DNA of 64,000 bases from Nitrospirae bacterium GWF2_44_13 (GCA_001805105.1 MHEE01000013.1:23826-87825), one strand, 5' to 3'; counted from the stretch's first letter, positions 588 through 64,000 are shown. Numbers and translations: made by a program. Notes: generated by a model not told the origin, from the sequence alone.

Positions 588-672
588 TGGTCCTCCAATT
601 AACAAATTCAAAATTAAGGGATTCATTAACTTTTAATTTTTATTATTATATCACAATAGGATATAATCCCCT

Positions 673-1644
673 ATGAAACCGACTTTTCATCACAGGCCCA
701 TAAACAGCCCCTTTGACGACCCTTGCGTATATGTCAGGGTGCTCAGGGAGAAACGGGCACTTCTATTTGACCTTGGCTATACAAACAGATTAAGACCAAA
801 CGACATCCAGAAAATAACAGACGTCTTTGTAACACATACTCATATAGACCATTTCATAGGTTTTGACAGTCTTTTAAGAGCGCTCCTGAGAAGAGAGGCT
901 CCACTAAGGATATTCGGGCCATCCAGCATCATAGAGTGCATTGAAGGAAAGCTTCATGGATACACGTGGAACCTTATAAAAGAGTACCCGCTAAAAATAG
1001 AGGCCTTCGGCATAAATGAAGACCATATCAGCCATGCAGGTTTTTATGCGGAGAATTGTTTTAACAAAACAGATTACGGCGAAAAACCATTTGACGGGAC
1101 ATTATTAAAAGAAGGATATTTTGAGGTTAAAGCAGCGTGCCTCACGCATCAGATGCCATGCCTCGGCTTTTCTCTTGAAGAGGATTTTCATATAAACATT
1201 GATAAGGCAGCGCTGAACAGGCTGGCGCTTCCTGTAGGGCCATGGCTTTCAGAATTTAAAAGGGCTGTCAGAGAGAATGCAGGGGGGGACACAGAATTTA
1301 AAATATCAGGCAGAATATATGCCAAAAAAGAACTCATGGAAATCGCGATAATAACAGAGGGGCAAAAGATATCCTACGTTGCTGATTCCTCAATGGATGA
1401 GGAGAATATAAGAAAAATAATAACCCTCGTTAAAGATTCCGATACTCTTTATTGCGAGGCTTACTTTCTTGAGGAAGACATGGAAAGGGCTATAGAGAGG
1501 CATCACCTCACTGCAAAAACCGCAGGAAGGATAGCGAGAGAGGCAGGCGTTAAAAACCTTGTTGTCATGCACTTTTCTCCGAAATACAGGGAATGCCCTG
1601 ACGCGCCTGAAAAAGAAGCGCTGATGGAATATAATAAAGAATAA
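673..1644 (+). CDS. MBL-fold metallo-hydrolase, RNase Z/ElaC-like
   Basis: ORF track, 323 aa. HTHIDH (HxHxDH) metallo-beta-lactamase motif, and a C-terminal VVMHFSPKY block as in RNase Z-like proteins. Confidence 0.7.
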   Translation: MKPTFHHRPINSPFDDPCVYVRVLREKRALLFDLGYTNRLRPNDIQKITDVFVTHTHIDHFIGFDSLLRALLRREAPLRIFGPSSIIECIEGKLHGYTWNLIKEYPLKIEAFGINEDHISHAGFYAENCFNKTDYGEKPFDGTLLKEGYFEVKAACLTHQMPCLGFSLEEDFHINIDKAALNRLALPVGPWLSEFKRAVRENAGGDTEFKISGRIYAKKELMEIAIITEGQKISYVADSSMDEENIRKIITLVKDSDTLYCEAYFLEEDMERAIERHHLTAKTAGRIAREAGVKNLVVMHFSPKYRECPDAPEKEALMEYNKE

Positions 1645-1715
1645 GTTAAAAGTTTAAAATTTAAAATTTCAGATAGTCTTTAACTCTTAACTCCTAACTT
1701 TTAACTCTAAACTTG
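1645..1715. repeat. inverted heptanucleotide arrays (AAAGTTN units, then their complement TTAACTC/CTAACTT units)
   Basis: Read directly: GTTAAAA GTTTAAA ATTTAAA ATTTC..., then TTTAACT CTTAACT CCTAACT TTTAACT CTAAACT. GTTAAAAGTT (1645-1654) is complementary to AACTTTTAAC (1696-1705). Confidence 0.8.
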
Positions 1716-9190: not shown

Positions 9191-10084
9191 GTGAAGATTA
9201 ATTTTACAAAGATGCACGGCCTCGGCAATGACTTCATCTTAATTGACTGCATTACGCAGAAGTTAAAAGTTAAAAGTGAAGAGTTAAAAGTTCTAAGCAA
9301 AAAACTCTGCCACAGGCGGTTCGGCATAGGCTCTGACCAGTTACTCCTGCTTTATCCGTCCGGAACCGCTGATTTCAGGATGCGAATATTTAACGCTGAT
9401 GGCAGCGAGGTGGAGATGTGCGGCAACGGCATAAGATGCCTTGCTAAATATATCTGGAGCAGACGGTTATCCGGAAAGGCCCTTCTTAATATTGAAACCT
9501 TGGCAGGCCTAATAAGGCCTCAGAAAAAAGGCAAACTGGTAAGAGTTGATATGGGAGAACCGTTTTTTGAGCCTGAGAAAATACCCATAAAGATACAGGA
9601 TACACGATACGGGATACAGGATTATCGTGCATCATACATCACGAATCATGCATCACGACCAATCGTTGACTATCCCATAAGGATTGAAGACAGGGAGTTT
9701 AAATTAACCTGTGTTTCAATGGGTAATCCTCATGCTGTAATAGTTGTTGACAACGTTATGGCTTTCCCTGTAATTTATTACGGGCCCTTGCTTGAAATGC
9801 ATGAGATTTTCCCTAAAAGAACTAACGTGGAATTCATAGAGATATTAAATCCCTCGGAAATAAAAATGAGAGTGTGGGAAAGAGGCGCAGGCGAGACAAT
9901 GGCATGCGGCACAGGAGCATCTGCCGCTGCTGTCGCATCCAGCCTTAAAGGGCTTTCAAAGAAGAATGTTACAGTGCATCTCACAGGGGGAGATTTGCTT
10001 GTTGAGTGGGCAAAAGACAATCATGTTTATATGACAGGTACTGCAGAGGAAGTATTTACAGGGGAGATAAGTATTAAATTATAG
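9191..10084 (+). CDS. dapF: diaminopimelate epimerase
   Basis: ORF track, 297 aa. MHGLGNDF, NADGSEVEMCGNG and ACGTGA catalytic Cys blocks. GTG start. Confidence 0.95.
   Translation: MKINFTKMHGLGNDFILIDCITQKLKVKSEELKVLSKKLCHRRFGIGSDQLLLLYPSGTADFRMRIFNADGSEVEMCGNGIRCLAKYIWSRRLSGKALLNIETLAGLIRPQKKGKLVRVDMGEPFFEPEKIPIKIQDTRYGIQDYRASYITNHASRPIVDYPIRIEDREFKLTCVSMGNPHAVIVVDNVMAFPVIYYGPLLEMHEIFPKRTNVEFIEILNPSEIKMRVWERGAGETMACGTGASAAAVASSLKGLSKKNVTVHLTGGDLLVEWAKDNHVYMTGTAEEVFTGEISIKL
9258..9299. repeat. in-frame heptanucleotide array inside dapF (AGAAGTT AAAAGTT AAAAGTG AAGAGTT AAAAGTT CTAAGCA)
   Basis: Read directly. Encodes QKLKVKSEELKVLSKK. Confidence 0.8.
9592..9661. repeat. in-frame heptanucleotide array inside dapF (GATACAG GATACAC GATACGG GATACAG GATTATC GTGCATC ATACATC ACGAATC ATGCATC ACGACCA)
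   Basis: Read directly. Encodes IQDTRYGIQDYRASYITNHASRP, between the conserved MGEPFFEP and VSMGNPH blocks. Confidence 0.85.
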
Positions 10085-27696: not shown

Positions 27697-30234
27697 TTGT
27701 ACGAAAGATATGACCCCAAAAAAGTTGAGCTGAAATGGCAGAAGTACTGGGCTGAGAAAAATATTTTTAAAACAGAACCCGATGCTTCAAAAAAGAAATT
27801 CTACTGCCTTGAAATGTTCCCCTACCCTTCAGGGAAAATACACATGGGCCATGTCAGAAATTATGCAATCGGCGACGTAATAGCAAGATACAAGAGGATG
27901 AGAGGGTTCAATGTCATCCATCCGATGGGATGGGATGCATTTGGAATGCCTGCTGAGAACGCCGCGATAAAAGAGGGAATCCACCCTGCAAAATGGACCT
28001 ACGAAAATATCACCTACATGAAAAAACAGCTTAATCAGTTGGGGCTCAGCTATGACTGGGACAGAGAGGTTACAACATGCAGCCCTGATTACTACAAGTG
28101 GAATCAGTGGTTCTTCCTGAAGATGTATGAGAAGGGGATTGCATACAGGAAATCATCATTTGTGAACTGGTGCCCTTCATGCATGACTGTTCTTGCAAAT
28201 GAGCAGGTTATTGACAATGGATGCTGGAGATGCGATACAGCGGTAATCAAGAAAGAGTTGGAGCAGTGGTTTTTTCGTATTACGCATTATGCAAAAGACC
28301 TCCTGAAGGCGTGTGATGAGCTTAAGGGCTGGCCTGAAAAAGTTATCTTAATGCAAAAGAACTGGATTGGAAAGAGCGAGGGGCTTGAGGCTGATTTCAA
28401 AGTTGCAGGAAGGGACGAAAGAATCCGTATATTCACTACAAGGGCCGACACTTTATTTGGAGCCACATTTGTATGCCTTGCGCCTACACACCCTTTATCA
28501 GAAAAACTCGTTGTTGATAAAGAAGCTCTTAAGAAGGTCAAGGAACACTACGGCAAAGAAGATGAAAAAATTGGGCTCTTTACAGGACACTACGCAACCA
28601 ATCCCGCGAATGATGAGAAGATTCCAATTTATATAGCAAACTTCGTTCTGATGGAATACGGCACAGGAGCAATAATGTCCGTTCCTGCTCATGACCAACG
28701 GGATTTTGAATTTGCAAAAAAGTACAATCTGCCAATACGGGTGGTAATAGAACCAGAGCAGAAGTCAAAACTTACCGAAGCGTACGAAGATGAAGGCATT
28801 CTTGTTGATTCAAATTCTTTTAGCAAGCTAAGAAGTGATGTTGCAAGAATAGAGATAGCAAAGCACATAGAGAAAAAAGGCTTAGGCAAGAGGGTAATAA
28901 ATTACAAGCTCCGTGACTGGGGAATATCAAGGCAGAGATACTGGGGAACGCCGATACCGATAATTTATTGCGAGAAATGCGGTGTTGTTCCAGTCCCTGA
29001 ACAAGAACTGCCGGTAATCCTTCCAGAGGATGTGAAATTCACAGGCACAGGCGGGTCACCACTTGCAGAGTCAGAAAAATTTGTAAATACAATTTGTCCA
29101 AAATGCAAAGGCAAGGCAAGGCGAGAGACTGATACAATGGACACATTTGTTGATTCATCATGGTATTTCATTGCATATTGCGTTGACAATGGAAAGATTA
29201 ATTTCCAATCCCTAACCCCCAATCCCCAATCCCCAATAAGTTACTGGATGCCTGTTGACCAGTATGTCGGCGGTGTTGAACACGCAGTGCTTCATCTCCT
29301 CTATTCAAGATTTTTTACCCGTGTTATAAAAGACCTTGGAATCATTAACTCTCCGGAGCCTTTCACAAACCTTCTCACGCAGGGAATGGTATGTAAAGAA
29401 ACGTTGAAATGTCCTGAGCATGGCTGGCTCTTACCTGAAGATGTTAAGGATGAGAAGTGCATAAAATGCGGAAAGGCTGTTGACATAGGACGGGTTGAAA
29501 AGATGTCAAAATCAAAAAAGAATGTCATTGACCCTGACCATCTTATAAACAGATACGGGGCAGACACATCAAGGCTCTTTTCGCTCTTTGCTGCGCCGCC
29601 TGAAAGAGACCTTGAATGGTCAGACCAGGGGGTTGAGGGTGCATACAGATTCCTGAATAGGATATGGGGACTCTTATATAAAAATAAATTCAAAATTCAA
29701 AATTCAAAATTCAAAATTGAGGAGCTATCAAGCTATCAGCCATCAGCCGTGCGCCTTCTACGAAAAACACATCAGACCATAAAGCGGGTTACAAACGACA
29801 TGGAGCGCGAATACCACTTCAATACAGCGATTGCAGCGCTCATGGAGCTTGTGAATGATCTATGTTCGTTTGAGCCGAAATCAGACGACGACTGGAAAGT
29901 ATTCAGATTCGGCATTGAAGCGCTTCTGCTTTTGCTTTCTCCATTTTCTCCGCACATATCGGAAGAACTGTGGGAATCTATAGGCAACAAAAAAGGCATA
30001 CTTGAACAGAAATGGCCTTTATGGGATGAGAATATCGCAAAAGAAGAAGAAATAGAACTCGTTATTCAGATTAACGGCAAAGTAAAGGCAAAGATTATGA
30101 TAGCTGCGGGGCAGGCGGACGATGAAGTCAGGGGGAAAGCTCTTGGCGAACCCAGGATACAGGAAATTATAAAGGGGAAAACACTGAAAAAAGTCTTTAT
30201 TGTTAAAGGCAAACTTGTTAACATAGTAATATGA
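27697..30234 (+). CDS. leuS: leucine--tRNA ligase
   Basis: ORF track, 845 aa. HMGH and KMSKS class I motifs and a CP1 editing domain. TTG start according to the ORF track. Confidence 0.97.
29203..29237. repeat. in-frame heptanucleotide array inside leuS (TTCCAAT CCCTAAC CCCCAAT CCCCAAT CCCCAAT)
   Basis: Read directly. Encodes [12 protein letters not shown], between [10 protein letters not shown] and YWMPVDQY. Confidence 0.85.
29681..29751. repeat. in-frame heptanucleotide arrays inside leuS (AAAATAA ATTCAAA x4 ATTGAGG, then AGCTATCA AGCTATC AGCCATC AGCCGTG)
   Basis: Read directly. Encodes [24 protein letters not shown]. Confidence 0.85.
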
Positions 30235-30239
30235 CAAGA

Positions 30240-30740
30240 ATGAAAGTTAAAAGTTTTATGTTACTGTCTACTGTCTACTGTCTACTGTTTACTCTCTCCA
30301 GCTGCGGTTATACGCTGCAGGGCAGAGACACGCTGCCCTTTACCTCTGTCAAAATAGGCAGGATTGAAAACAAAACATTTGAACCGAAATTGGAAGATAA
30401 ATTCCAGAAAGCGCTTGCTGATGAACTCATAAGAAACGGAATAATGATTTCAAATAGCGCAAAACATATAATAAACGGCACTATAGATGACCTGAAGCTA
30501 AGCCCCCTCGCAGAAAAAGAAGGCGTAGCATCCGAATATCAGGTAATTATAAAAGCCAAATTTTTTCTTACATCCCCCGACGGGAAGGTCAAAGAGTTAA
30601 GAAACACAGGAGTTTTTATTGTATCTTTTCCAGGTTCGGGCAATATAGAAAGCTTAGTCGCGGCAAAAGAGCAGGCAACAGAAACTGCTATGAGAAATCT
30701 GGCTTCTGAGATACGTGCCGGAATAGTCTATGGCATGTAG
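30240..30740 (+). CDS. lptE: LPS-assembly lipoprotein LptE
   Basis: ORF track. Lipoprotein signal peptide with lipobox LSSC followed by GYTLQGR. Conserved leuS-lptE-holA gene order. Start (30231 or 30240) is uncertain. Confidence 0.7.
   Translation: MKVKSFMLLSTVYCLLFTLSSCGYTLQGRDTLPFTSVKIGRIENKTFEPKLEDKFQKALADELIRNGIMISNSAKHIINGTIDDLKLSPLAEKEGVASEYQVIIKAKFFLTSPDGKVKELRNTGVFIVSFPGSGNIESLVAAKEQATETAMRNLASEIRAGIVYGM
30241..30296. repeat. heptanucleotide array forming the lptE signal-peptide coding region (TGAAAGT TAAAAGT TTTATGT TACTGTC x3 TACTGTT TACTCTC)
   Basis: Read directly. Translates to KVKSFMLLSTVYCLLFTL. Confidence 0.85.
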
Positions 30741-38385: not shown

Positions 38386-38399
38386 TGACTCCTCCTCTT

Positions 38400-38469
38400 G
38401 TTATAAGTTATAAGTTTAAAGTTAGAAGTTTTTGAACTTTTCACTTTTCACTTTTAACTCTCAACTCCC
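38400..38469. repeat. inverted heptanucleotide arrays filling the qmoB-qmoC intercistronic spacer
   Basis: Read directly: GTTATAA GTTATAA GTTTAAA GTTAGAA GTTTTTG, then AACTTTT CACTTTT CACTTTT AACTCTC AACTCCC. The two arms are approximately complementary. Confidence 0.85.
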
Positions 38470-44808: not shown

Positions 44809-46008
44809 TTATTTTTCAAGACTCTGATAATACTTAATCAGAATTTCAGCCACTTCAGGACGTGAAAATTCTTTAGGCGGCGCAATACCCTTGCCTAACA
44901 TTTCACGAACTTTTGTACCTGAAAGCAGAACAAAGTCTTCTTTTGTATGATCAGGCGCTTCACACATCATCATAACCTTTTTCAGTTTCTTAGAGTATGC
45001 AGTGTGGTCAGCCTTGAAGATCTCAATTTTCAGCGCACCGGCAGGAACTTCCTTATCAAAGATGGTTTGCGCATCGAATGGACCGTAATGATCACCAACA
45101 CCTGCATGGTCACGGCCAACAATAAAGTGGGTTGCGCCCATGTTCTGACGGAATATAGCGTGCAATACACCCTCACGTGGGCCAGCATAAAGCATATCGA
45201 AACCGTAACCAGTAACCATTGCACTGTTTTTCGGGAAGTACAGCTCGACCATCTTACGGATCGCAGCATCACGAACAGGCGCAGGGATATCTCCTTTTTT
45301 CAATTTACCAAGCAACATGTGAATAACCAGGCCATCACAACCTAAACGGTCCATTGCCATATGGCAAAGTTCTTCGTGGGCCAGATGCATCGGGTTACGG
45401 GTCTGGAAAGCAACAACTTTCTTCCAGCCGCGCTCAGCGATTTCGTTACGGATTTCAACTGCGGTACGGAAAGTGTCAGGGAATTCATCCTGGAAGTAAG
45501 AGAAGTTTAGTACTTTAATTGGACCTGACAGACAAACCTTACCCTGAGCATTGAATGCTTCAACACCCGGATGCGCTTCGGGGGGCTTGGGACGGTAAAC
45601 TTTTTCAGACATCATCGCCATATCTGCATCGCTGAATTCTTCAACCGCTTTTACATCCATAACTGCCAGCACAGGATTGCCTTCGACATTTGGATCTTTG
45701 AGGGCAATACGGTCACCTGCTTTAATTTTTCCTGCGTCTTTAACCAGGTTTAAAATTGGGACAGGCCAGAACAAACCGGATGTTGTTTTCATATCTTTAG
45801 CAACAGACAAGGCATCCGCTTTATTCATGTAGCCTGTTAATGGGTTGAAGTAACCGCCACCAAGCATAACTGCATTCGCTGCAGTAGCTGAGCTTACAAT
45901 AATAGAAGGCAGACCTTCAGCTTCTTTCTGCAGGGCTTCATTTTTAGCCGTGTCATATACAAATAGTGGATTTAGTTCGTCTGAACCATGTGGTTTAATC
46001 AATGCCAT
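44809..46008 (-). CDS. sat: sulfate adenylyltransferase (ATP sulfurylase)
   Basis: ORF track. QTRNPMHLAHE and GRDHAGVG motifs. Start moved from the TTG at 46035 to ATG at 46008, which has AGGAGG 5 nt upstream. Confidence 0.95.
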   Translation of the reverse strand: MALIKPHGSDELNPLFVYDTAKNEALQKEAEGLPSIIVSSATAANAVMLGGGYFNPLTGYMNKADALSVAKDMKTTSGLFWPVPILNLVKDAGKIKAGDRIALKDPNVEGNPVLAVMDVKAVEEFSDADMAMMSEKVYRPKPPEAHPGVEAFNAQGKVCLSGPIKVLNFSYFQDEFPDTFRTAVEIRNEIAERGWKKVVAFQTRNPMHLAHEELCHMAMDRLGCDGLVIHMLLGKLKKGDIPAPVRDAAIRKMVELYFPKNSAMVTGYGFDMLYAGPREGVLHAIFRQNMGATHFIVGRDHAGVGDHYGPFDAQTIFDKEVPAGALKIEIFKADHTAYSKKLKKVMMMCEAPDHTKEDFVLLSGTKVREMLGKGIAPPKEFSRPEVAEILIKYYQSLEK

Positions 46009-46061
46009 TTCTTCCTCCTGTTTAGTTTTTATCAATAAAAAAAGCTTTTTCCCCTAAATTT

Positions 46062-46709
46062 CTATTTAAGCCCTAACACTTCACATACTTTTTTGAATAT
46101 GTCGTCTATGCTGCCGGTGCCCTGCACTGACTTCACCATGCCTTTTTTGCCGTAGTAGTCCATAAGCGGAGCTGTCTGGGCATTGTATACCTCAAGCCTC
46201 TTCTTTATAGTCGCTTCCTTGTCATCATCCCTCTGGAAAAGTTCCTTGCCGCACTTATCGCAAACGCCTTCTTTTTTAGGGGCATTAAAATAGATATTAA
46301 ACATCTGGCCGCAGGCCTTGCAGGTCCTTCTTCCGGTAAGGCGTTTCATGAGATCTTCAAATGGGACATCGACGCTGAGGGCCGCAGTTAAAGACATATC
46401 AAGGCTGGCGAGCATCTTATCGAGCTCTTCCGCCTGCTTTGTGTTTCTCGGGAACCCGTCAAGGATGTATCCCTTTTTGCAGTCATCCTTCTTAAGCCTG
46501 TCCTCCACAAGACCCAAAACTACCCTGTCAGGCACCAGTTCTCCTTTGTCCATATAGGACTTTGCCTCTTTGCCGAGCGGCGTGCCCTCCGCTACATTCT
46601 GCCTTAAGATATCGCCTGTTGAAATCTGCGGAATGCCGTATTTGTCAATAAGCTTCTTTGCCTGAGTTCCTTTGCCCGCTCCAGGCGCACCTAACAATAC
46701 TATCCTCAT
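46062..46709 (-). CDS. adk: adenylate kinase (Zn-lid type)
   Basis: ORF track, 215 aa. GAPGAGKGTQ P-loop and lid CKACG...CDKCG. About 53 nt upstream of sat on the same strand. Confidence 0.95.
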   Translation of the reverse strand: MRIVLLGAPGAGKGTQAKKLIDKYGIPQISTGDILRQNVAEGTPLGKEAKSYMDKGELVPDRVVLGLVEDRLKKDDCKKGYILDGFPRNTKQAEELDKMLASLDMSLTAALSVDVPFEDLMKRLTGRRTCKACGQMFNIYFNAPKKEGVCDKCGKELFQRDDDKEATIKKRLEVYNAQTAPLMDYYGKKGMVKSVQGTGSIDDIFKKVCEVLGLK

Positions 46710-53545: not shown

Positions 53546-54412
53546 CTATAATGCGCGTACTGTAACAATCCTCTCTATGCCTGCATAGTCCTTAATAACA
53601 GAGATATTCCGGAAACCGTTCTGCATAGCGATTTCTGAGACTTCCGCTGCCTGTCCTTCTCCGATTTCAAGAAAGACAACTCCGTTGAGCATCAGGTATT
53701 TGCGCGCCTCCGAAAGTATTGTCCTGTAATAATTGAGCCCATCCTCGCCGCCGTCAAGCGCATTCCTCGGCTCCCACTTCTTTATCTCGGGCTGAAGATT
53801 CGCTATGTCACTGCTTCTGATATATGGAGGGTTTGAGACAATCATATTAAAAGTGACGGGTGACGGGTGACGAGTCACAAGTTGCTTTAAAGGCTCAAAC
53901 AGCGAGCCCTTAAGAAATGTTACATTCCTTATATCGTTAAGCCTTGCATTCTCATTTGCGTACCTTATCGCATCTTTTGATATGTCAGTCCCGTATACCT
54001 CGGCGTCAGGGAAACGCTTTGCTATCGCAAGCGCAAGGCATCCGCTCCCTGTGCAGAGGTCAAGGACTGTGAACTGTGAACTGTGGACTGTGAACTGCTT
54101 TATAACTTCTTCTGCCAGTAATTCCGTCTCAGGCCTCGGAATAAGAACGCCTTTGCCAACCTTTATCTTTAATCCGTAAAATTCCACATATCCGAGGATA
54201 TACTGAAGCGGCTCTCTCTGAGCGCACCTCCGAAGAACAACATCGACGTCCTTTATATTTTTTTCAGAAAGAACAGGGTTATCTCTGTAAAGCGCCGTCT
54301 TGTCTATGCCGAGACAATGAGTAACAATAATTTCCGATTCTTTATGAGCATCGTCAATGCCGCAATTTTCAAGAAACGCTGTGATCTCTTTTATTTTCTC
54401 AAGAGCCTTCAT
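53546..54412 (-). CDS. prmC: peptide chain release factor N5-glutamine methyltransferase
   Basis: ORF track, 288 aa. LDLCTGSGCLA SAM motif and IVSNPPYI catalytic motif. Confidence 0.9.
   Translation of the reverse strand: MKALEKIKEITAFLENCGIDDAHKESEIIVTHCLGIDKTALYRDNPVLSEKNIKDVDVVLRRCAQREPLQYILGYVEFYGLKIKVGKGVLIPRPETELLAEEVIKQFTVHSSQFTVLDLCTGSGCLALAIAKRFPDAEVYGTDISKDAIRYANENARLNDIRNVTFLKGSLFEPLKQLVTRHPSPVTFNMIVSNPPYIRSSDIANLQPEIKKWEPRNALDGGEDGLNYYRTILSEARKYLMLNGVVFLEIGEGQAAEVSEIAMQNGFRNISVIKDYAGIERIVTVRAL
53853..53880. repeat. in-frame heptanucleotide array inside prmC (GTGACGG GTGACGG GTGACGA GTCACAA)
   Basis: Read directly. On the coding (minus) strand it encodes LVTRHPSPVT just before NMIVSNPPY. 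Confidence 0.85.
54065..54099. repeat. in-frame heptanucleotide array inside prmC (GACTGTG AACTGTG AACTGTG GACTGTG AACTGCT)
   Basis: Read directly. Encodes QFTVHSSQFTV immediately before LDLCTGSG. Confidence 0.85.
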
Positions 54413-55915: not shown

Positions 55916-56116
55916 ACTGAAACCTGAACAACCGTATTGAGACCAACGCCGAGAAGCGCGGTGGCGCTACGCGGCAAGGTCATTGGCGGCGGCATCGCAT
56001 GCTTTATGTTTTATTTCTTGTGGTCTCCTCCCCCAAAGCATAAAGGCTTTTCTGATCGTGACCGGCTCGAAGCAACCTCACGAGCTATGGGTGGGAGGAG
56101 TGCACCAAACAAAAAA

Positions 56117-56141
56117 GCCCCCGCTTCAAAAAAGCGGGGGC
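56117..56141 (-). terminator. rho-independent terminator of the rpoA-rplQ operon
   Basis: GCCCCCGC/GCGGGGGC stem with a 9-nt loop. On the minus strand it is followed by CTTTTTTG. About 30 nt after the rplQ stop. Confidence 0.85.
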
Positions 56142-56170
56142 TTTCAATTAACTTTATTCAAAACTAAAGA

Positions 56171-56602
56171 TTACTTTTTCCCTTCCTTTTTCTCTTCTTC
56201 TTTCTTCTCTGCCTTCGCCTTCTTCACTTTCGGCTTCTTTATGCTCTCGTAGTCTATGAATTCAAGAACAGCCATCGGCGCCCCGTCATTAACCCTGTTC
56301 CTTGTCTGCACTAGTCTCAGATACCCGCCGTTTCTGCCGCTGAACCTCGGCGCTATCTCGCTGAACAACTTTGCCACAACAGCCCTGTTCGGAACATATG
56401 AAAGCACAAGGCGTTTTGAATGGAGGTCGCCTTTTATCCCCATGGTTACAATTTTCTCAGCAATCACTTTTGCAGCCTTTGCCTTTGCAAGTGTTGTCTC
56501 TATCCTCTGATACTCTAATAACGAAGAGACTATCCCTTTCAGGAGCGCCTTCCTCTGGTTTGCCGTTCTTCCGAATAGCCTTCCGCTAACTTTATGACGC
56601 AT
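56171..56602 (-). CDS. rplQ: 50S ribosomal protein L17
   Basis: ORF track, 143 aa. MRHKVSGRLFGR...TTLAKAK; Lys/Glu-rich tail. Confidence 0.97.
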   Translation of the reverse strand: MRHKVSGRLFGRTANQRKALLKGIVSSLLEYQRIETTLAKAKAAKVIAEKIVTMGIKGDLHSKRLVLSYVPNRAVVAKLFSEIAPRFSGRNGGYLRLVQTRNRVNDGAPMAVLEFIDYESIKKPKVKKAKAEKKEEEKKEGKK

Positions 56603-57629
56603 CTTGTCCTACACTCCTGACCTGTGAAGTTGCCATTTTATTCACCATTTCCCTGTCAATCTTCATGCCGAAATTAAGCCCCATGTTTTGAAGCATTTCC
56701 TTTATCTCATTTAGAGACTTCCTGCCGAAATTTTTTGTCTTCAGCATCTCTGGCTCTGTTCTTTCAACAAGGTCTGCAATAATCTTGATGTCCGCATTTC
56801 TCATGCAGTTATATGCCCTTACGGAAAGCTCCAGTTCGTTAACGCTCTTCAGGAGATTGGGATTAAACGCCGGCGCATCTCCTGATGCCGATGAACTGCT
56901 ACTCATTTCAAACTCCGGGTTTTCCTCGTCTTGTTCAAGCATGAAAATACGCATATGGTCCGTAACTATAGCCGCAGCCTGAGAGACTGCTTTTTTAGGC
57001 GTTACGCTTCCGTCCGTCCATATCTCCATCACAAGCCTGTCGTAGTCTGTGGCCCTTCCGACCCTTGCCTTCTCAACCCAGAAATTCACTTTCCTGACCG
57101 GGCTGAAAACAGAGTCCACCGCAATCATGCCGACTGGAAGCTCTTCTTCCTTGTTAAGTTCGGCTGATACATACCCTCTGCCTTTCTTGATGTACATCTC
57201 AGCCTCAAAAACAGCCCCTTTGTCAAGGGTGGCTATAAGCTGTTCAGGATTAAGTATCTCAACGCTTGAATCAACCTGAATGTCATTGCCTTTAACTTCA
57301 CCCGGGCCCTTAACTTTGATTGTGGCGATCCGCTTTCCATCGGCGTGCATCTTGACCCTGAGCTTTTTTATGTTCAGGATGATGTCCACCACATCTTCTT
57401 TAACGCCGGTAATGGATGAAAGTTCATGAACAGAACCGGTTATTTTTACTGCTGTTACCGCCGCGCCTTCAAGGGACGACAGCAAAACTCTCCGTATGGA
57501 GTTCCCGAGTGTTGTCCCGAAACCGCGTTCTAACGGCTCCGCCACGAGCTTACCGTAGGTGCTCGTTAATGTCTCTTCATCAAACTCGCTGTTTTCAGGT
57601 AACTGAAAGCCTTTTTTCTTTAAATCCAT
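56592..57629 (-). CDS. rpoA: DNA-directed RNA polymerase subunit alpha
   Basis: ORF track, 345 aa. PLERGFGTTLGNSIRRVLLSS N-terminal domain and C-terminal LELSVRAYNCM. Confidence 0.97.
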   Translation of the reverse strand: MDLKKKGFQLPENSEFDEETLTSTYGKLVAEPLERGFGTTLGNSIRRVLLSSLEGAAVTAVKITGSVHELSSITGVKEDVVDIILNIKKLRVKMHADGKRIATIKVKGPGEVKGNDIQVDSSVEILNPEQLIATLDKGAVFEAEMYIKKGRGYVSAELNKEEELPVGMIAVDSVFSPVRKVNFWVEKARVGRATDYDRLVMEIWTDGSVTPKKAVSQAAAIVTDHMRIFMLEQDEENPEFEMSSSSSASGDAPAFNPNLLKSVNELELSVRAYNCMRNADIKIIADLVERTEPEMLKTKNFGRKSLNEIKEMLQNMGLNFGMKIDREMVNKMATSQVRSVGQDAS

Positions 57630-57665
57630 CTAAGGCCTCCCACGCCTCTTTTATTTTTAAAAACT

Positions 57666-58292
57666 CTACTTTGAATAAAGTTCAACTATCAACTGTTCCT
57701 GAACAGGCAGTTGCATCTCTTCCCTTGAGGGTATATGCAGCACCTTCCCTTTGAAGCTTGCGCTGTCAACCTCAACCCATGCAGGAATTCCTCTATTCTC
57801 AAGCCTTGACATATTATCAGCCAGGGTCGGGATCTTTCTGCTTTTCTCCTTAACCTCGATAACATCTTTCGCCTTAACAAGATAAGAAGGGATGCTTACT
57901 GCTTTTCCATTCACGGTAAAATGTCCGTGCGTTATAAACTGCCTTGCCTCTCTTCTGTTTATCGCAAATCCCATTCTGAACACTGCGCTGTCCAGTCGGC
58001 GCTCAAGAAGCTGTAAGAGTAATTCTCCAGTAGGGCCCTTCTTTCTTTCTGCCTCATGAAAATATATTCTGAACTGCTTCTCAAAAAGCCCGTAGCTCTT
58101 TCTTGTCTTCTGTTTTTCCCTAAGCTGGATACCGTAATCCGAGATTTTTGTACGTCTTTGCCCGTGCTGGCCCGGCGGATATTTCCTCCTCTCTACCGAA
58201 CATTTCTCAGTGAAACACCTGTCTCCCTTAAGAAACAGTTTGTCACCTTCTCTACGGCACACTCTGCATAAAGGCCCAGTATATCTTGCCAC
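57666..58292 (-). CDS. rpsD: 30S ribosomal protein S4
   Basis: ORF track, 208 aa. [16 protein letters not shown]... and S4 domain. Confidence 0.97.
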
Positions 58293-58294
58293 TT

Positions 58295-58681
58295 TTAAAC
58301 TCTCCTTCTCTTTGGAGGCTTACATCCATTATGAGGAACAGGAGTAACGTCCTTTATAAGGTTAACCTCAAGTCCGGCTATCTGCAATGCCCTGATAGCT
58401 GATTCTCTTCCGGCGCCCGGCCCTTTTACAAAAACGTCCAGCTGTTTCATCCCCACATCAATCGCCTTTTTAGCCGCTGATTCTCCTGCCATCTGCGCAG
58501 CATAAGGCGTTCCCTTCCTGGAACCCTTGAACCCAAGGCTCCCGGCGCTTGCCCATGCAACAACATTCCCGTTAGGGTCTGTTATGGAAACTATCGTATT
58601 ATTAAATGTTGCCTGAATATGCGCAGCTCCGACATTTACATGCTTCTTGTCTTTCCTTGCGCCCTTTTTCCGCTGAGCCAT
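58295..58681 (-). CDS. rpsK: 30S ribosomal protein S11
   Basis: ORF track, 128 aa. ...[14 protein letters not shown]...[13 protein letters not shown]. Confidence 0.97.
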
Positions 58682-58684
58682 CCG

Positions 58685-59059
58685 CTATGCCTCCTTCTTT
58701 TTGCCCATGATGGTTTTCCTCGGACCTCTGCGGGTGCGGGCATTTGTCTTTGTTCTCTGTCCCCTCACAGGAAGCCCTGTCTTATGCCTTAGGCCCCTGT
58801 AACAGCCAATTTCCATAAGCCTTTTTATCCCCATTGTGGTCTCACGCCTGAGGTCGCCCTCGACCTTATATTCCCTGTCAATGGCAGATCTTATTTTTAC
58901 AATGTCTTCGTCTGTTATATCTTTTACCCTTATGTCAGGATTAACTTTTGTCTCAGCCAGTATTTTCTTCGACAAAGACCTGCCTATCCCTAATATCCTT
59001 GTTAACCCTATCTCAATCCGTTCATTCTTTGGTAAATCCACTCCAGCGATTCTCGCCAT
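58685..59059 (-). CDS. rpsM: 30S ribosomal protein S13
   Basis: ORF track, 124 aa. [20 protein letters not shown]... Confidence 0.97.
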
Positions 59060-59070
59060 TTATTCTCCTA

Positions 59071-59135
59071 TTCAGTGTCAGTGTTTAGTATCAGTAAAGC
59101 CTTTTCTAACTGACACAGTTCACTGTCACTAATCA
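59071..59135. repeat. inverted heptanucleotide arrays (CAGT/ACTG family) filling the rpmJ-rpsM spacer
   Basis: Read directly: TTCAGTG TCAGTGT TTAGTAT CAGTAAA ... CTAACTG ACACAGT TCACTGT CACTAAT. Confidence 0.75.
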
Positions 59136-59141
59136 CTTTAA

Positions 59142-59255
59142 TCATCCCTGCCTTTGCTTGTGGCGGGGATTTTCGCATATTATTCTTCTAACGCCCTTCC
59201 TTTTTACAACCTTGCATTTAGCGCATATTGGTTTTACAGATGAACGAACTTTCAT
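59142..59255 (-). CDS. rpmJ: 50S ribosomal protein L36
   Basis: Below the ORF-track size cut-off. Manual translation gives [37 protein letters not shown]. Lies in the expected infA-rpmJ-rpsM position. Confidence 0.9.
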
Positions 59256-59285
59256 GTCTACCCCTGCTCTTTCTAACTTTTAACT

Positions 59286-59504
59286 TTATTTAAACCTGTA
59301 TGTTATCCTGCCTCTTGTAAGGTCATAAGGCGAGAGTTCCACTGTAACCTTATCACCCGGCAGTATCTTTATAAAATGCATCCTCATCTTGCCGGAAATA
59401 TGAGCGAGGATTATCTGCCCGTTCTCAAGTTTTACCCTAAACATCGCATTGGGCAGCGTTTCAACAATCTTTCCCTCTACCTCTATATTTTCCTCTTTAG
59501 GCAT
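59286..59504 (-). CDS. infA: translation initiation factor IF-1
   Basis: ORF track, 72 aa. ...[21 protein letters not shown]...HISGKMR. Confidence 0.97.
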
Positions 59505-59528
59505 TAGCTGAGAAGTATAACATCTATA

Positions 59529-60275
59529 TTATATTTTCGTCAAGATTCTTGCGTCTCCGTCAGTAATGGCAATCGTATGCTCAAAGTGAGCGGAGAGTCC
59601 GCCGTCAAGGGTAACTGCCGTCCATCCATCGTCAAGTATGCTGACCTCATGCCCGCCTGTATTAACCATAGGCTCAATTGCGAGGGTCATGCCTTCCTTT
59701 AGTCTCGGCCCCTGCCCTGAGACGCCAAAATTCGGGACCTGAGGTTCTTCATGAAGCGACATCCCAATCCCGTGTCCGACAAATGCCTTCACTACGGAAA
59801 AACCGTTTGCCTCAACATAATTCTCAATGGCAGATGATATATCCGAAACCCTGTTGCGGGGCGTCGCTTTATCTATCCCCTTATAAAGGGCTTCCTCTGT
59901 TACCTTTAAAAGTTTTTTTGCAAGCGGGCTTACCTCCCCGACAGGCATGCTGACTGCCCCGTCTCCATAAAAACCATCCCTATAGACTCCAAGGTCTATG
60001 CTTAACACATCCCCGTCGTTAAGCCTCACACGAGAGGGTATCCCGTGAACAACCTGATTATTCACAGACGTACAGATACTGGCAGGGTATCCCCTGTATC
60101 CTTTAAATGCGGGTGTTCCGCCTTTTGAAGTTATTTTTTCTTCTGCAAACATTTCTATCTCTTTTGTTGTAATACCGGGCTTCACAAACGCCTTCAGATC
60201 TTCCAGTATCTCGGCAACTATTTTACAGGCTTTCGCCATCTTCTCAATCTCCTCAGGAGTCTTTATGACAATCAT
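59529..60275 (-). CDS. map: type I methionine aminopeptidase
   Basis: ORF track, 248 aa. VVHGIP, D..D metal ligands, HGIG, EP..., EHT. Confidence 0.95.
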   Translation of the reverse strand: MIVIKTPEEIEKMAKACKIVAEILEDLKAFVKPGITTKEIEMFAEEKITSKGGTPAFKGYRGYPASICTSVNNQVVHGIPSRVRLNDGDVLSIDLGVYRDGFYGDGAVSMPVGEVSPLAKKLLKVTEEALYKGIDKATPRNRVSDISSAIENYVEANGFSVVKAFVGHGIGMSLHEEPQVPNFGVSGQGPRLKEGMTLAIEPMVNTGGHEVSILDDGWTAVTLDGGLSAHFEHTIAITDGDARILTKI

Positions 60276-61582
60276 TACCTCCGGCCCTTTATCCTGCCCT
60301 TCTTTAAAAAGCCTTCGTATGAGCGGGTAACGAGGTGCGACTCAATCTGTGACACTGTGTCAAGGGCAACGCCGACAACAATCAGCAGCGATGTCCCGCC
60401 AAAATAAAAAGGGACGTTGAACCTCTGTATGAGAATCTCAGGAATAATACACACAACTGCAAGATATACTGCGCCGACAAATGTTAATCTCGACATAACC
60501 CTGTAAATGTATTCCGATGTCTTCTGTCCCGGCCTTATGCCCGGAATGTATCCCCCATATTTTTTAAGATTGTCCGCTATATCCACGGGGTTAAACACAA
60601 TTGCAGTGTAAAAATAAGCAAAAAAGAATATCATGCCAACGTAGAGCATTGTATAAAAAACAGTGCCCGGAGAAAGTTGCTTTGCTATGCCCTGAACCCA
60701 CGGGATTGCTATAAAACCGGCGATAGTCGCAGGGAACATTATTATGGAAGATGCAAATATAGGCGGAATAACGCCTGATGTGTTTACCTTCAAAGGAAGG
60801 TGAGTGCTCTGGCCGCCGTATATCTTGCGGCCGACAAGCCGCTTTGCATATTGAACAGGTATCTTTCTCTGCCCTCTCTCGATAAATATAATCACGCCGA
60901 TAACGGCAACCATCATCGCAATAAGAAAGATAACAAGGAATATTGACAGTTCTCCGGCTTTTAACAGTTGATATGTGCTGATTACAGCGTTAGGGAATCT
61001 TGCAACAATACCGGCAAAGATAATAAGAGATATGCCGTTGCCTATCCCTCTTTCCGTAATCTGTTCTCCAAGCCACATTATGAATGCTGTGCCGGACGTA
61101 AGGGTTATCATTGTAATTAACCTGAATGACCAGCCGGGACTCTGTATAAAAGCGCCTCCTGCCATGCTCTCAAGGCCAATCGCAATACCCATTGACTGGA
61201 TTGCGCTTATAACAACTGTTGCGTATCTTGTATATCTTGTTATCTTCTTCCTGCCGGCTTCTCCCTCTTTGGCAAGCTTACCGATTGCAGGGATAACGAC
61301 TGTCAGGAGCTGAAAAATAATCGAGGCGCTTATGTAAGGCATAATCCCAAGGGCAAATATGGTAACCCTTGAAAGCGCTCCGCCTGAAAACATATCAAAG
61401 AACCCCATAAGAGCGCCAGCGCCGCTTGCAGCAAGGAATTTGCTCAGTTCCTCGCCGTTTATGCCCGGGGTCGGGATATGGCCGCCTATCCTGTATACAA
61501 TAAGTAGTGCAAGCGTAAAGAGAACCCTGTTTTTTAACTCAGGGACTTTAAATATGTTCTGAAAGTTTGAAAGAATTCCCAT
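60275..61582 (-). CDS. secY: preprotein translocase subunit SecY
   Basis: ORF track. 10-TM pattern, GIMPYISASII and LGEQITERGIGNGISL. Start moved to MGILSNF, 20 nt after the rplO stop. The secY stop overlaps the map ATG. Confidence 0.95.
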   Translation of the reverse strand: MGILSNFQNIFKVPELKNRVLFTLALLIVYRIGGHIPTPGINGEELSKFLAASGAGALMGFFDMFSGGALSRVTIFALGIMPYISASIIFQLLTVVIPAIGKLAKEGEAGRKKITRYTRYATVVISAIQSMGIAIGLESMAGGAFIQSPGWSFRLITMITLTSGTAFIMWLGEQITERGIGNGISLIIFAGIVARFPNAVISTYQLLKAGELSIFLVIFLIAMMVAVIGVIIFIERGQRKIPVQYAKRLVGRKIYGGQSTHLPLKVNTSGVIPPIFASSIIMFPATIAGFIAIPWVQGIAKQLSPGTVFYTMLYVGMIFFFAYFYTAIVFNPVDIADNLKKYGGYIPGIRPGQKTSEYIYRVMSRLTFVGAVYLAVVCIIPEILIQRFNVPFYFGGTSLLIVVGVALDTVSQIESHLVTRSYEGFLKKGRIKGRR

Positions 61583-61601
61583 AATAGAAATTATTTGATT
61601 T

Positions 61602-62042
61602 TTAGATTGTTTCTGCTTTACCGCCTGCAGCGGCAATCTTGGCTGCAGCTGCAGCGCTGAATATTTTCGCCTTTATTGTAACGGGTCTTTTTATCTCGCC
61701 GGCACCGAGTATCTTGATTCCGTCTTTAATCTGCCTGACTACCCCTCTTTCAACAAGCAGTCCAGGTGTTATAACATCACTGTCTTCAATCCTTGCAAGG
61801 TCTTTCAGGTTTATTACTGCATATTCCTTAGCAAAATGATTTTTAAACCCTCTCTTGGGGATTCTCCTCTGCAACGGCATCTGCCCACCTTCAAAACCTG
61901 CTCCTTTTCCGCTGCCGGCGCGCGCTTTCTGCCCTTTATGACCCTTGCAGGACGTCTTGCCATGGCCCGAACCTATTCCGCGGCCTACTCTCTTATTTCT
62001 TTTTCTGCAGCCGTCTGCGGGCTTTAAATCATCTAGCCTCAT
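61602..62042 (-). CDS. rplO: 50S ribosomal protein L15
   Basis: ORF track, 146 aa. [23 protein letters not shown] overlap with the rpsE stop. Confidence 0.97.
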
Positions 62043-62560
62043 CTAACTCCTCCGCTATTTTCCTGCGCTTCTTCCTCTGTCCTTCCCCTCAATCTGCGGA
62101 CTGCATCAGGGTCCTTAAGCTTTAACAGCCCGTCAATAGTAGCCTCTGCGGTATTGTAAGGATTATGGCTGCCGATTGCTTTGGCAACAATATCCTGTAT
62201 GCCGGCAACATCCAGCACTGCCCTTACAGCGCCGCCTGCGATAAGTCCTGTGCCTTTGACTGCAGGATTCATAACGATATAACCGGAACCGAACCTGCCT
62301 GTTATCCTGTGGGGGATTGTTCCATCTTTCATGGGGAATTTAACCAATGATTTCTTTGCCTGCTCAACAGCCTTTCTTATTGCCTCAGGGACTTCTTTTG
62401 CCTTGCCTTTACCAATGCCCACGATGCCGTCTCCATTTCCAACAGCAACCAGCGCAGCAAAAGAAAATCTTCTTCCGCCCTTCACAACCTTTGCAACTCT
62501 GTTTATAAATACAACCTTATCTTTTAAAGTCAGTCCATCCGGATCAATTCTTTTCACCAT
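62039..62560 (-). CDS. rpsE: 30S ribosomal protein S5
   Basis: ORF track, 173 aa. ...[21 protein letters not shown]... Confidence 0.97.
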
Positions 62561-62573
62561 ACCCCCTGTTACA

Positions 62574-62664
62574 AAAAGTTCAAAGTTGAAAGTTCAAAGT
62601 TGACAATTAACAATTCAAAATGAAGGATTCCATAATTTTTCATTTTGCTTTTTGAATTTTGCAT
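62574..62664. repeat. inverted heptanucleotide arrays filling the rplR-rpsE spacer
   Basis: Read directly: AAAAGTT CAAAGTT GAAAGTT CAAAGTT GACAATT AACAATT CAAAATG ... TTTTCAT TTTGCTT TTTGAAT TTTGCAT TTTAAAA. CAAAATGA pairs with TCATTTTG. Confidence 0.85.
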
Positions 62665-62665
62665 T

Positions 62666-63034
62666 TTAAAACTCAAGTCCGTTTTCTCTGGCAGCATCAG
62701 CTAAGGCCTTAACCCTGCCATGATAAAGATAGCCGCCCCTGTCAAAAACAACCCTCTTTATCCCCTTTTTTAATGCCTTCTTGGCTATGAGCTCGCCAAC
62801 TTGCTTTGCCGCACTAATATTGCCCTTTCCGGACTTCTTATCTTTACCTTTCAGCTCTTTATCAAGGCTTGATGCGGCAGCAATAGTGCTGCCCTTGAAA
62901 TCATCTATAATCTGTGCATACATATGTGACAGGCTCCTGTAAACTGACAGCCTCGGCCTCTCAGTTGTGCCCGCAACTTTTTTCCTTATTCTTTCATGCC
63001 TTCTTGTTCTTGCGTCCTTTATCTCTGCTGCCAA
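62666..63034 (-). CDS. rplR: 50S ribosomal protein L18
   Basis: ORF track, 122 aa. ...[18 protein letters not shown]...[17 protein letters not shown]. Confidence 0.97.
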
Positions 63035-63052
63035 CTTGCAACCTCCAATATA

Positions 63053-63087
63053 ATTTTAAAATTCATTAATTTTGAATTTTGAATTTA
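63053..63087. repeat. heptanucleotide array (NAATTTT units) in the rplF-rplR spacer
   Basis: Read directly: ATTTTAA AATTCAT TAATTTT GAATTTT GAATTTA. Runs from the rplF stop codon towards the rplR RBS. Confidence 0.65.
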
Positions 63088-63627
63088 TTTCTTGCCTGCC
63101 TTGCCTACCTTAAGCTTCAATCTCTGGCCTGCGTATCTTACCCCTTTGCCTTTATAAATATCAGGAGGCCTCAGCGCCCTTAAATCTGCGGCAATCTGTC
63201 CCATCTGCTGTTTGTCAATGCCCGTCAATGTAATCTGCGTCTGCTTCTGGTCTACGGCAGCCTTAATGCCGGGCGGAAGAATAAATTCCACAGGATGAGA
63301 ATATCCCAGAGCAAGCAGAAGTTTATTACCCTGAACCTGAGCCCTGTAACCTGTGCCCGTAATTTCAAGCACTCTCTGGTAACCTGATGAAACTCCGGAT
63401 ACCATATTTGATATAAGACTCCTTGTAAGTCCATGCAATGCCCGAATATTCTTAGTTTCTCCTGTCCTTTCAACCACTACCTTCCCTTCATCTACTTTAA
63501 CCAGCACTCCAACAGGGAACCCAGATGAAAGCTCGCCTTTCGGCCCTTTGACATTAACAGTTGTATCTGCAATTTTTACATCTACGCCTTTTGGTATATC
63601 TATCGGTTTTTTCCCTATTCGAGACAT
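63085..63627 (-). CDS. rplF: 50S ribosomal protein L6
   Basis: ORF track, 180 aa. MSRIGKKPIDIPKGV... Confidence 0.97.
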   Translation of the reverse strand: MSRIGKKPIDIPKGVDVKIADTTVNVKGPKGELSSGFPVGVLVKVDEGKVVVERTGETKNIRALHGLTRSLISNMVSGVSSGYQRVLEITGTGYRAQVQGNKLLLALGYSHPVEFILPPGIKAAVDQKQTQITLTGIDKQQMGQIAADLRALRPPDIYKGKGVRYAGQRLKLKVGKAGKK

Positions 63628-63642
63628 TTATTCCCCTCTCTT

Positions 63643-64000
63643 TTACCACACATAACAAAGAATCTCACCGCCGACACCTTCGCGGCGACAGGTACTGTCA
63701 GTAGCGACGCCCTTGTGCGTTGTCAGTACAGCCATGCCTATGCCTCCCATTACCCTTGGGATCTTTTTGCTGTTTACATAAACCCTGCGTCCGGGTTTAC
63801 TTATCCTTTTCAATCCGGATACAACATTATTCCCATCAACATATTTAAGCGTAATCCTTAAAACACCCTGCTTATCATCTTTTAAGATTTTATATGCCTT
63901 TATGAAACCCTCTTCCTTCAGGATTTTCACTATTTCAAGCTTAAGCTTAGAGGCAGGAATATCAACTTTTTCTGCACGAATAGTAATCGCATTTCTAACG
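63643..64000 (-). CDS. rpsH: 30S ribosomal protein S8 (5' end beyond the window edge)
   Basis: The ORF track shows the C-terminal 95 aa. Manual extension to the window end reads ..RNAITIRAEKVDIPASKLKLEIVKILKEEGFIKAY.., typical of S8. Confidence 0.9.
   Translation of the reverse strand, partial: VRNAITIRAEKVDIPASKLKLEIVKILKEEGFIKAYKILKDDKQGVLRITLKYVDGNNVVSGLKRISKPGRRVYVNSKKIPRVMGGIGMAVLTTHKGVATDSTCRREGVGGEILCYVW

Follow-up and report, generated by a model that had tools for sequence, protein, structure and literature searches.

A conserved GT[AG]G tetranucleotide at the foot of the hairpin, recognised by RAYT, defines repetitive extragenic palindromic (REP) sequences, and the cyanobacterial short tandemly repeated repetitive (STRR) sequences proper are made of the units CCCCAGT, TTGGTCA and CAACAGT. 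The subject of this article is a set of heptamer arrays in the spacers of the spc/alpha ribosomal-protein operon of a groundwater Nitrospirota, Nitrospirae bacterium GWF2_44_13, found in a 64-kb stretch of its DNA (44% G+C) that we call the window. Their closest described counterparts come from four directions. REPINs, doublets able to form hairpins, are scattered in many places and moved by RAYTs (PMC3116915). Heptamer repeats are known to be in excess in bacteria, and the GGGAATC-type repeats of Xanthomonas and Nostoc include inverted pairs and operon-internal sites (PMC4692102). In marine Beggiatoaceae, TAACTGA heptamers lie a few nucleotides (nt) upstream of start codons, also in ribosomal-protein operons, and some fall within open reading frames (ORFs); a translational role has been proposed, though untested, and 169 sets are direct against one indirect (PMC4679880). 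Rickettsia palindromic elements (RPEs) sit in frame in unrelated housekeeping genes, where they are translated as extra loop peptides, and occur between genes as well (PMC10969869). The elements described here share features with all four and fit none of them fully. We think it probable, though well short of certain, that the spacers are lineage-specific repeat DNA built from 7-nt units, with features of REPINs, MITEs (miniature transposable elements with inverted repeats) and STRR sequences, and not a device evolved for the operon. What leads us there is the 7-nt period, the palindromy, the dispersal of a shared core, presence and absence in relatives, a strain polymorphism of exactly 7 nt, copies in frame inside genes and the lack of a sense-strand bias in the clade.

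The operon occupies the minus strand of the window in the order rpsH, rplF, rplR, rpsE, rplO, secY, map, infA, rpmJ, rpsM, rpsK, rpsD, rpoA, rplQ. Three of its junctions are long, each spanning the distance from the upstream stop codon to the Shine-Dalgarno (SD) site of the next gene; the remaining junctions are all 36 nt or shorter.

59060-59141, minus strand: rpmJ-rpsM spacer, 82 nt.
62561-62665, minus strand: rplR-rpsE spacer, 105 nt.
63035-63084, minus strand: rplF-rplR spacer, 50 nt.
59065-59069, minus strand: SD AGGAG of rpsM, left unpaired by the minimum-energy fold, 2-3 nt 3' of the hairpin's foot.
62562-62566, minus strand: SD GGGGG of rpsE.
63042-63046, minus strand: SD GGAGG of rplR, whose start is the TTG at 63034.

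A preliminary description, made from the sequence alone, had stated that each array ends just before the SD of the next cistron, and with AGGAG, GGGGG and GGAGG located at the three spacers this is confirmed. It had also called the spacers unusually long. That is right for rplR-rpsE and rplF-rplR, which measure 8-27 nt in most relatives, and wrong for rpmJ-rpsM, which runs to 57-130 nt in relatives free of arrays. The three sequences are identical across more than 15 independently assembled contigs (ENA, NCBI, JGI, Logan), and so they are not an assembly artefact.

Period 7 is plain in two of the spacers. Autocorrelation at this period reaches 0.59 for rplR-rpsE and 0.58 for rplF-rplR, where other or neighbouring periods give about 0.3, and Tandem Repeats Finder (TRF) reports period-7 arrays at 62575-62603, 62635-62667 and 63068-63086. 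In rpmJ-rpsM the value is 0.29 over a background of 0.27; this spacer is an irregular series of 6-7-nt units, AGTGAnn and then ACTGAnn, with no clean heptamer array. Heptamers had been described as the substance of all three, which is accurate for the first two and too generous to the degenerate units of the third. The parts are as follows.

59072..59132, minus strand: rpmJ-rpsM hairpin, with 5' arm AGUGAUU AGUGAC AGUGAA CUGUGUCAG, a loop, and 3' arm ACUGAU ACUAAAC ACUGAC ACUGAAU.
62589..62668, minus strand: apparent near full-length copy (~85 nt) of a palindromic element that we call type A, starting at the rplR stop codon.
62616..62647, minus strand: central 9-bp stem-loop of that element, the only paired feature kept in the ensemble centroid structure.
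62575..62603, minus strand: type-B array, (CAACUUU/GAACUUU) x4 on the mRNA; TRF period 7/14, 100% match at period 14.
63047..63087, minus strand: rplF-rplR mini-element, (AAAUUCA)2.7, which overlaps the stop codon of rplF, followed by AAUGAAUUUUAAAAUU.

Folding was scored as a z value for the spacer RNA against 200 dinucleotide shuffles. The rpmJ-rpsM spacer folds at -23.4 kcal/mol (z -4.32), which none of the 200 shuffles equals; no second copy of its hairpin was found in the window or in the nearest related species. The whole rplR-rpsE spacer scores z +0.36, its stable part being the 9-bp central stem only, and rplF-rplR has a weak 8-bp AU hairpin at 63058-63080 (-3.8 kcal/mol, z -0.11). Hairpins had been expected to be favoured over shuffled sequence. 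Two of the three spacers fold no better than their shuffles, and this is the very outcome that the preliminary description had itself named as refuting its proposal. The forward array followed by its reverse complement, the architecture it drew for all three, is clear in rpmJ-rpsM, present only locally in rplR-rpsE (the 9-bp stem) and marginal in rplF-rplR, and the example it offered, AAAGTTC/AAAGTTG paired with TTTGAAT/TTTGCAT, does not hold, as the two arrays are not complementary on the mRNA.

The rplR-rpsE element is best understood through its relations elsewhere. It runs from A-rich heptamers (GCAAAAU, UCAAAAA and similar) through the core AAAAAUUAUGGAAUCCUUCAUUUUG at 62621-62636 to U-rich heptamers, with the type-B array at 62575..62603 taking the place of the outer 3' arm. 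AAAATTC-type arrays at several loci share this non-repeat core, AAAAWTWWGGRATTCATTWAYTTT, which recurs in the window at 613-628 and at three junctions of L001, the nearest species in our genome collection (SecY 89% identical), called here the sister species. Another copy in the window is this one.

598..648, plus strand: type-A copy, core ATTAAGGGATTCATTA; it lies where a GalT-like gene and a metallo-beta-lactamase (MBL)-fold gene diverge across a gap of 85 nt.

It abuts the SD of the minus-strand gene. A type-A profile (nhmmer) built from eight copies in other species matches 62589-62668 (E = 7e-18) and 598-648 (E = 3e-11), and matches in part at 63050-63086 in rplF-rplR (E = 2e-6) and at an array within leuS; in the distant relatives L002, L003 and L005 it finds nothing. 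The eight-copy alignment has A/T-rich ends, AAAATGCAAAAT ... TTTTGAATTT. Scanning metagenome contigs for the core gave 55 hits, about 12 of them true family members on contigs of 40-46% G+C, with A-rich heptamers 5' and U-rich heptamers 3', mostly with a stop codon on one side and an SD and start codon on the other. The copy count stands at 2-4 in the 64 kb of the window, four in 21 kb of the sister species and about 12 in metagenomes. Because of the profile match and the shared core, we take rplR-rpsE to be, on sequence grounds, a near-complete copy of a dispersed, imperfectly palindromic element of ~85 nt whose outer 3' arm has been replaced; the rplF-rplR spacer, judged in the same way, appears to be a short relative of the family.

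The preliminary description had likened the spacers to REP sequences and to bacterial interspersed mosaic elements (BIMEs). As structure the likeness is good: rplR-rpsE is a dispersed imperfect palindrome in transcribed intercistronic DNA. As function it is unsupported. Like the REP, BIME and REPIN sequences of Enterobacteria and Pseudomonas (PMC3116915), the elements are short imperfect palindromes with hairpins predicted in single-stranded DNA or mRNA, dispersed in the case of type A and with no second copy found in that of the rpmJ-rpsM hairpin; most sit in extragenic DNA that is transcribed, between the genes of an operon or after them, and their arms change in concert. Unlike REPs and REPINs, they have arms of tandem heptamers in variable number, several unrelated unit families occur together, no GT[AG]G motif is found at the hairpin foot in the eight aligned type-A copies, and they are not strictly extragenic. 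Set beside MITEs, the entire type-A element is an inverted repeat, and no target-site duplication is seen at the diverged filled and empty sites.

Period 7 reaches well beyond the operon. In our own scan the window yields 14 period-7 arrays where Markov controls yield 0.5. Periods 4-6, 8-13 and 15-20 stay at background or close to it, each giving 0-3 arrays for an expectation of 0.05-0.6, and the only other periods to rise along with 7 are its multiples 14 and 21. Such an excess, together with the identity of the spacers in independent assemblies, refutes the idea that the pattern is chance, low-complexity AT-rich sequence or an assembly artefact; two AU-rich spacers are indeed low in sequence complexity, and even so we give that idea virtually no weight. 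Seven of the 14 arrays are non-coding and form four loci, namely rplR-rpsE, rplF-rplR, the gap between an MBL-fold gene and a tRNA gene, and qmoB-qmoC. The other seven lie in frame inside dapF, leuS, lptE and prmC. Outside the operon they are the following.

1643..1713, plus strand: inverted type-B arrays, (AAGTTAA)n then (TTAACTC)n, between the stop codon of the MBL-fold gene and the tRNA gene (1724-1795); z -0.5.
38396..38466, minus strand: inverted type-B arrays filling the qmoB-qmoC spacer; -17.5 kcal/mol, z -2.19.
9260..9292, plus strand: type-B array in frame in dapF, encoding KLKVKSEELKV.
9592..9658, plus strand: two heptamer/14-mer arrays (GATACAG and similar; ATCATGCATCACGA) in frame in dapF, between its two epimerase domains.
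29205..29237, plus strand: (CCAATCC)n in frame in leuS.
29686..29750, plus strand: (AAATTCA)4.7 plus a AGCTATCA array in leuS, both in frame.
30246..30297, plus strand: AAAGTTA units then (TACTGTC)5 in lptE, encoding its signal-peptide core.
53853..53882, minus strand: (GTCACCC)n in frame in prmC, at a site hypervariable across the clade.
54066..54097, minus strand: (CAGTTCA)4.6 in frame in prmC, encoding QFTVHSSQFTV; relatives hold whole inverted heptamer arrays there.

Period-7 arrays are a genome-wide property, not one specific to the ribosomal-protein operon, and their presence elsewhere in the genome and inside essential genes points to spreading repeat DNA rather than to an operon-specific control device. 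The leuS (AAATTCA)4.7 array matches one arm of the type-A model (a palindromic model, which both strands match equally) and contains a 23-mer identical to 63068-63090. The coding arrays of the window are each one direct array and show no tendency to form hairpins; the qmoB-qmoC arrays form a long AU-rich hairpin with an internal loop about every 7 nt. We do not claim that the ribosomal-protein operon is enriched in arrays. Hand estimates place three of six non-coding elements in 12.5% of the window (binomial p ~0.03), and the comparison per junction, 3/13 occupied in the operon against ~2/35 elsewhere, is not significant.

With these arrays in hand the likeness to heptanucleotide repeats becomes easy to state. 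As in the cyanobacterial STRR sequences and the Xanthomonas and Nostoc repeats (PMC4692102), the unit is exactly 7 and the excess particular to that length, close relatives differ in copy number by whole units (here a GAACTTT unit and the orthologous type-A copies), and sites are both intergenic and operon-internal, as at pecE-pecF of Anabaena, with inverted pairs occasional there. What sets the present arrays apart is that inverted pairing is the rule in spacers, that one family has a non-repeat core, and that the units are different and mostly AT-rich: AAAATTC, AAGTTAA, ACTGTGA, TACTGTC, GATACAG, CCAATCC and GTGACGG are not those of STRR proper. The Beggiatoaceae repeats resemble ours in lying upstream of start codons, including within a ribosomal-protein operon, and in having some copies inside ORFs. 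They consist of one unit, almost always in direct repeats, against the many units and palindromic pairs seen here, where TAACTGA occurs only once, in the rpmJ-rpsM spacer (59107-59113, plus strand).

The same variety of units bears on the possibility that the arrays are tandem sites for a single-strand nucleic-acid-binding protein (cold-shock or S1-like, at ~7 nt per monomer) that tunes translation near the SD. The idea has its attractions: the 7-nt period stays constant while the sequence varies, the arrays lie directly upstream of the SD, ACTGA-containing units occur in the 3' arm of rpmJ-rpsM, and such a role has been proposed for the Beggiatoaceae repeats (PMC4679880). But the units differ so widely between loci (AAAATTC, AAGTTAA, ACTGTGA, GATACAG, CCAATCC) that no single binding specificity fits, self-complementary arms would compete with single-strand binding, and arrays are also found inside genes. 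We regard such a protein as very improbable.

How arrays live inside genes can be followed in PrmC. An alignment of 27 PrmC orthologues of the clade, proteins of 280-338 residues, reveals both array sites of the window prmC as insertion hot spots, and the inserted peptides are translated heptamer arrays, for example KLKVKSEKE...NSKLQTPNSKL. The insert DNA of the L156 prmC is a complete in-frame palindrome, (AAGTTAA)n-loop-(AACTCCA)n, with a fold z of -3.7. In-frame palindromic insertion into a housekeeping gene is what RPEs do, a shared behaviour and not sequence homology; RPEs are ~100-150 bp of family-specific sequence without a 7-nt period, unlike the inserts here, which are 30-90 bp of heptamers. 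Relatives also carry a second family of repeat-derived peptides (PPLPPFSKGG, PPCPPLRRGGWGGG) at three different PrmC sites. Its carriers are the PrmC homologues P0024, P0032, P0034, P0040, P0042, P0055, P0075, P0083 and P0094, which suggests another translated repeat element in the clade.

Comparison of the spacers with related genomes, one of the checks proposed at the outset, showed no conservation of the elements at orthologous junctions. In the sister species, inverted heptamer arrays stand at rpsJ-rplC, rplV-rpsC, rpsC-rplP, rplN-rplX, rpsH-rplF, rplF-rplR, rplO-secY, infA-rpmJ and rpsD-rpoA; its units differ from those of the window, its junctions are mostly other ones, and its rplR-rpsE and rpmJ-rpsM spacers measure 12 and 34 nt. 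The more distant L002-L009 carry none, and at 77% SecY identity or less the spacers of relatives are short and free of arrays. Where filled and empty junctions can be set side by side (window, L001, L002), the elements take up the entire stop-to-SD gap, and we saw no target-site duplications at these sites, which are diverged. The opening units of an array are often similar to the ancestral sequence that follows the stop codon, a hint that some arrays arose locally. At rpsC-rplP, the orthologous type-A copies of L001, L154 and L101 still have the core, with unit numbers that vary and arms that are no longer complementary (L154 z 0.0). Within the species, the strain variant L085/L092 (~99.5% identical) lacks exactly one GAACTTT unit in rplR-rpsE; it is the single informative case, because the public contigs come from a single population.

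Some observations made along the way belong here. Repeats seem to disturb assembly, to judge from contig breaks or N-runs at or near the rplR-rpsE array: the L097 contig is disrupted (break or N-run) at 4413-4492 (entry range 4412-4493) and the L099 contig ends there, and the N-runs of L085 fall at other places of the operon. Three junctions of the sister species (8053-8133, 9449-9609 and 13597-13749) share long, similar AATAACC/GGTTATT arrays, which look like a second dispersed family, absent from the window. The 7-nt rule is broken in its rpmC-rpsQ spacer (5079-5113), where the array, (CCTCGAAC)4.4, has a period of 8 and forms no hairpin (z 0.08). The short infA-rpmJ spacer of the window starts with two units, AGTTAAA/AGTTAGA (59273-59285, minus strand), which may be the seed or the remnant of an array; at the same junction the sister species has a 71-nt AGTAAGT/GCTTACT hairpin.

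Could the spacers be conserved autoregulatory leaders of ribosomal-protein genes, such as an S4-binding alpha-operon leader before rpsM? The length of rpmJ-rpsM in several heptamer-free relatives, 57-130 nt, would suit such a leader. But Rfam gave no match at the gathering threshold anywhere in the window and none at E <= 1 overlapping a spacer (56000-64000), the rpmJ-rpsM hairpin is absent from the 34-nt spacer of the sister species, and its sequence has no similarity to the spacers of other relatives. A conserved leader is to our minds scarcely credible. Nor did we find a terminator-like site (G+C-rich stem plus U tract) within the three spacers; the sole terminator found in a terminator and promoter scan is at 56113-56145, 3' of rplQ. 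The genuine terminators of this genome differ from the arrays in having G+C-rich stems followed by U tracts, and the AT-rich rplF-rplR spacer has one weak promoter-like match, no more than chance would give.

The alternative with most to say for itself is that the hairpins are functional mRNA elements in the manner of REPs and BIMEs, which stall 3'-5' exonucleases, serve as RNase III/E sites, or uncouple or tune the next cistron, with a stability adjustable in 7-nt steps. We hold it unlikely as an account of the arrays, and yet an mRNA role is possible, mainly for the rpmJ-rpsM hairpin. Placement runs exactly from stop codon to SD and leaves the SD unpaired; the rpmJ-rpsM hairpin has z -4.3, many spacer hairpins of L001 and of Acidobacteriota reach z -3 to -7, and the host operons (ribosomal-protein genes, apr-qmo) are expected to be highly expressed. 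Against it, two of the three spacers fold at shuffle level, junction occupancy differs between sister species, the arms of orthologous copies decay, as in L154, and coding DNA, where a role of this kind is implausible, carries these repeats as well. The strands tell against it too. If selection acted on the mRNA, G-U pairs would make the sense strand fold better than the antisense; among 16 elements of the clade the better-folding strand is sense in 8 and antisense in 8 (Wilcoxon p = 0.78), and rplR-rpsE and rplF-rplR both fold better as antisense. With folds at shuffle level in two spacers, no sense-strand bias, unconserved junctions and arrays that are not operon-specific, the exonuclease barrier, the RNase site and the tuning of translation that had been proposed are left unsupported. 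Within the window only the rpmJ-rpsM hairpin is plausibly strong enough to matter as a 3'-exonuclease block or processing site. By their predicted folds, rplR-rpsE and rplF-rplR are weak AU-rich structures, probably of little effect.

A wider survey took in 80 SecY-anchored loci from other species. Strong period-7 signal appeared in 29 spacers of the same operon, in 12 of the 80 loci, nine of the 12 being Acidobacteriota (L045, L051, L057, L059, L064, L065, L067, L071 and L073, with L006 and L023 listed beside them). The Acidobacteriota arrays are G+C-rich (xCAGCTx units, GCTTCCC/AGCTGGC, AAAGATG/TTCATCT) and form very stable hairpins (-35 to -90 kcal/mol) in which each heptamer gives six pairs and a mismatch; rpsH-rplF of L057 folds at -45.5 kcal/mol (z -6.05) and map-infA of L064 at -48.5 kcal/mol (z -7.2). 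One pair of 94% identity differs in junction occupancy. The architecture recurs across phyla; the sequence does not. Our literature search found no report of heptamer repeats in Nitrospirota or Acidobacteria. A bolder idea is that such inverted arrays, 'zippers' of ~6 pairs and one mismatch per unit, are an actively maintained intercistronic RNA class common to this Nitrospirota clade and many Acidobacteriota, or else the product of a dedicated enzyme with a 7-nt register. We would call this a long shot. Were it true, slippage would set hairpin strength in quanta of 7 nt, and the stability, processing or translational coupling of mRNA segments could evolve fast in highly expressed operons.

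To return to repeat DNA as our preferred account, several observations weigh against it. Every one of the few non-coding array loci has a stop codon or an SD bounding its gap; one gap is divergent and none convergent, a placement also expected of a functional mRNA element. In the sister species 6 of 10 tested spacers fold significantly (z -2.6 to -4.75). Across the 29 spacers of the survey the sense strand folds better in 18 and the antisense in 9, a weak cross-species trend (p = 0.056) that also speaks for an mRNA role. Acidobacteriota species with 55-60% protein identity have the same junctions occupied by very stable hairpins, which hints at maintenance or at recurrent targeting. And a Pfam search for a transposase or RAYT among ~45 window ORFs outside the ribosomal-protein operon found none, in a search that covers 64 kb only.

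The mechanism we have in mind would run as follows. Some families, such as type A with its ~85-nt imperfect palindrome and shared core, would have dispersed to new sites. All arrays would grow, shrink and swap units locally in 7-nt steps, for which slippage is the likely source, while the arms of each palindrome stay roughly complementary, perhaps by template switching between them. Purifying selection would remove copies that harm genes, SD sites or other signals, leaving survivors between stop codon and SD within operons and, as in-frame copies, in protein loops that tolerate them; both the way in which families disperse and the near-neutrality of these survivors are our inference. Each copy on a polycistronic mRNA could then form an imperfect hairpin of about 5-6 pairs and a mismatch per heptamer.

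The window offers other things of interest. The convergent gap after rplQ (55916-56170, minus strand, 255 nt) holds the operon terminator at 56113-56145 and further RNA that is strongly structured; it folds at -98.8 kcal/mol (z -4.9), and its Rfam matches are weak and below threshold. rpsE and rplO overlap by 4 nt (window 62039-62042; L001 9014-9019), with no rpmD (L30) between them in the window or in the sister species; L002-L009 have a stretch of 185-254 nt there, presumed to be rpmD. The adk gene is not in its usual place after secY and lies instead at 46062-46709, adjoining the sat-aprBA-qmoABC cluster (37213-46035) to which the qmoB-qmoC spacer belongs. From that cluster it follows that the organism has the gene set for dissimilatory sulfate reduction or sulfur oxidation. 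Two long G+C-rich hairpins (-62 kcal/mol, z -5.1) lie in the aprA-qmoA spacer (41960-42160, minus strand, 201 nt); they bear no relation to the heptamer arrays and could be an attenuator or a processing site. An archaeal/eukaryotic-type ATP-dependent DNA ligase (Pfam DNA_ligase_A_N/M/C; 20515-22242) adjoins a HhH-GPD glycosylase; a full three-domain enzyme of this kind is uncommon in bacteria.

What would it mean for these bacteria if the arrays are, as we think probable, repeat DNA? Heptamer tandem repeats, REPIN-like palindromes and RPE-like in-frame insertion, usually described separately, would be combined in one system, and such repeat DNA would have a place in an uncultured, sulfur-cycling lineage of Nitrospirota. 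Long spacers in ribosomal-protein operons should then not be taken for conserved regulators without comparative checks. The arrays would account for length-hypervariable protein loops such as those of PrmC, and would be likely to break assemblies. With the same architecture recurring in Acidobacteriota, a phylum with some culturable members, experiments could address why a unit of 7 nt is favoured among bacterial repeats and whether these hairpins act on the mRNA.

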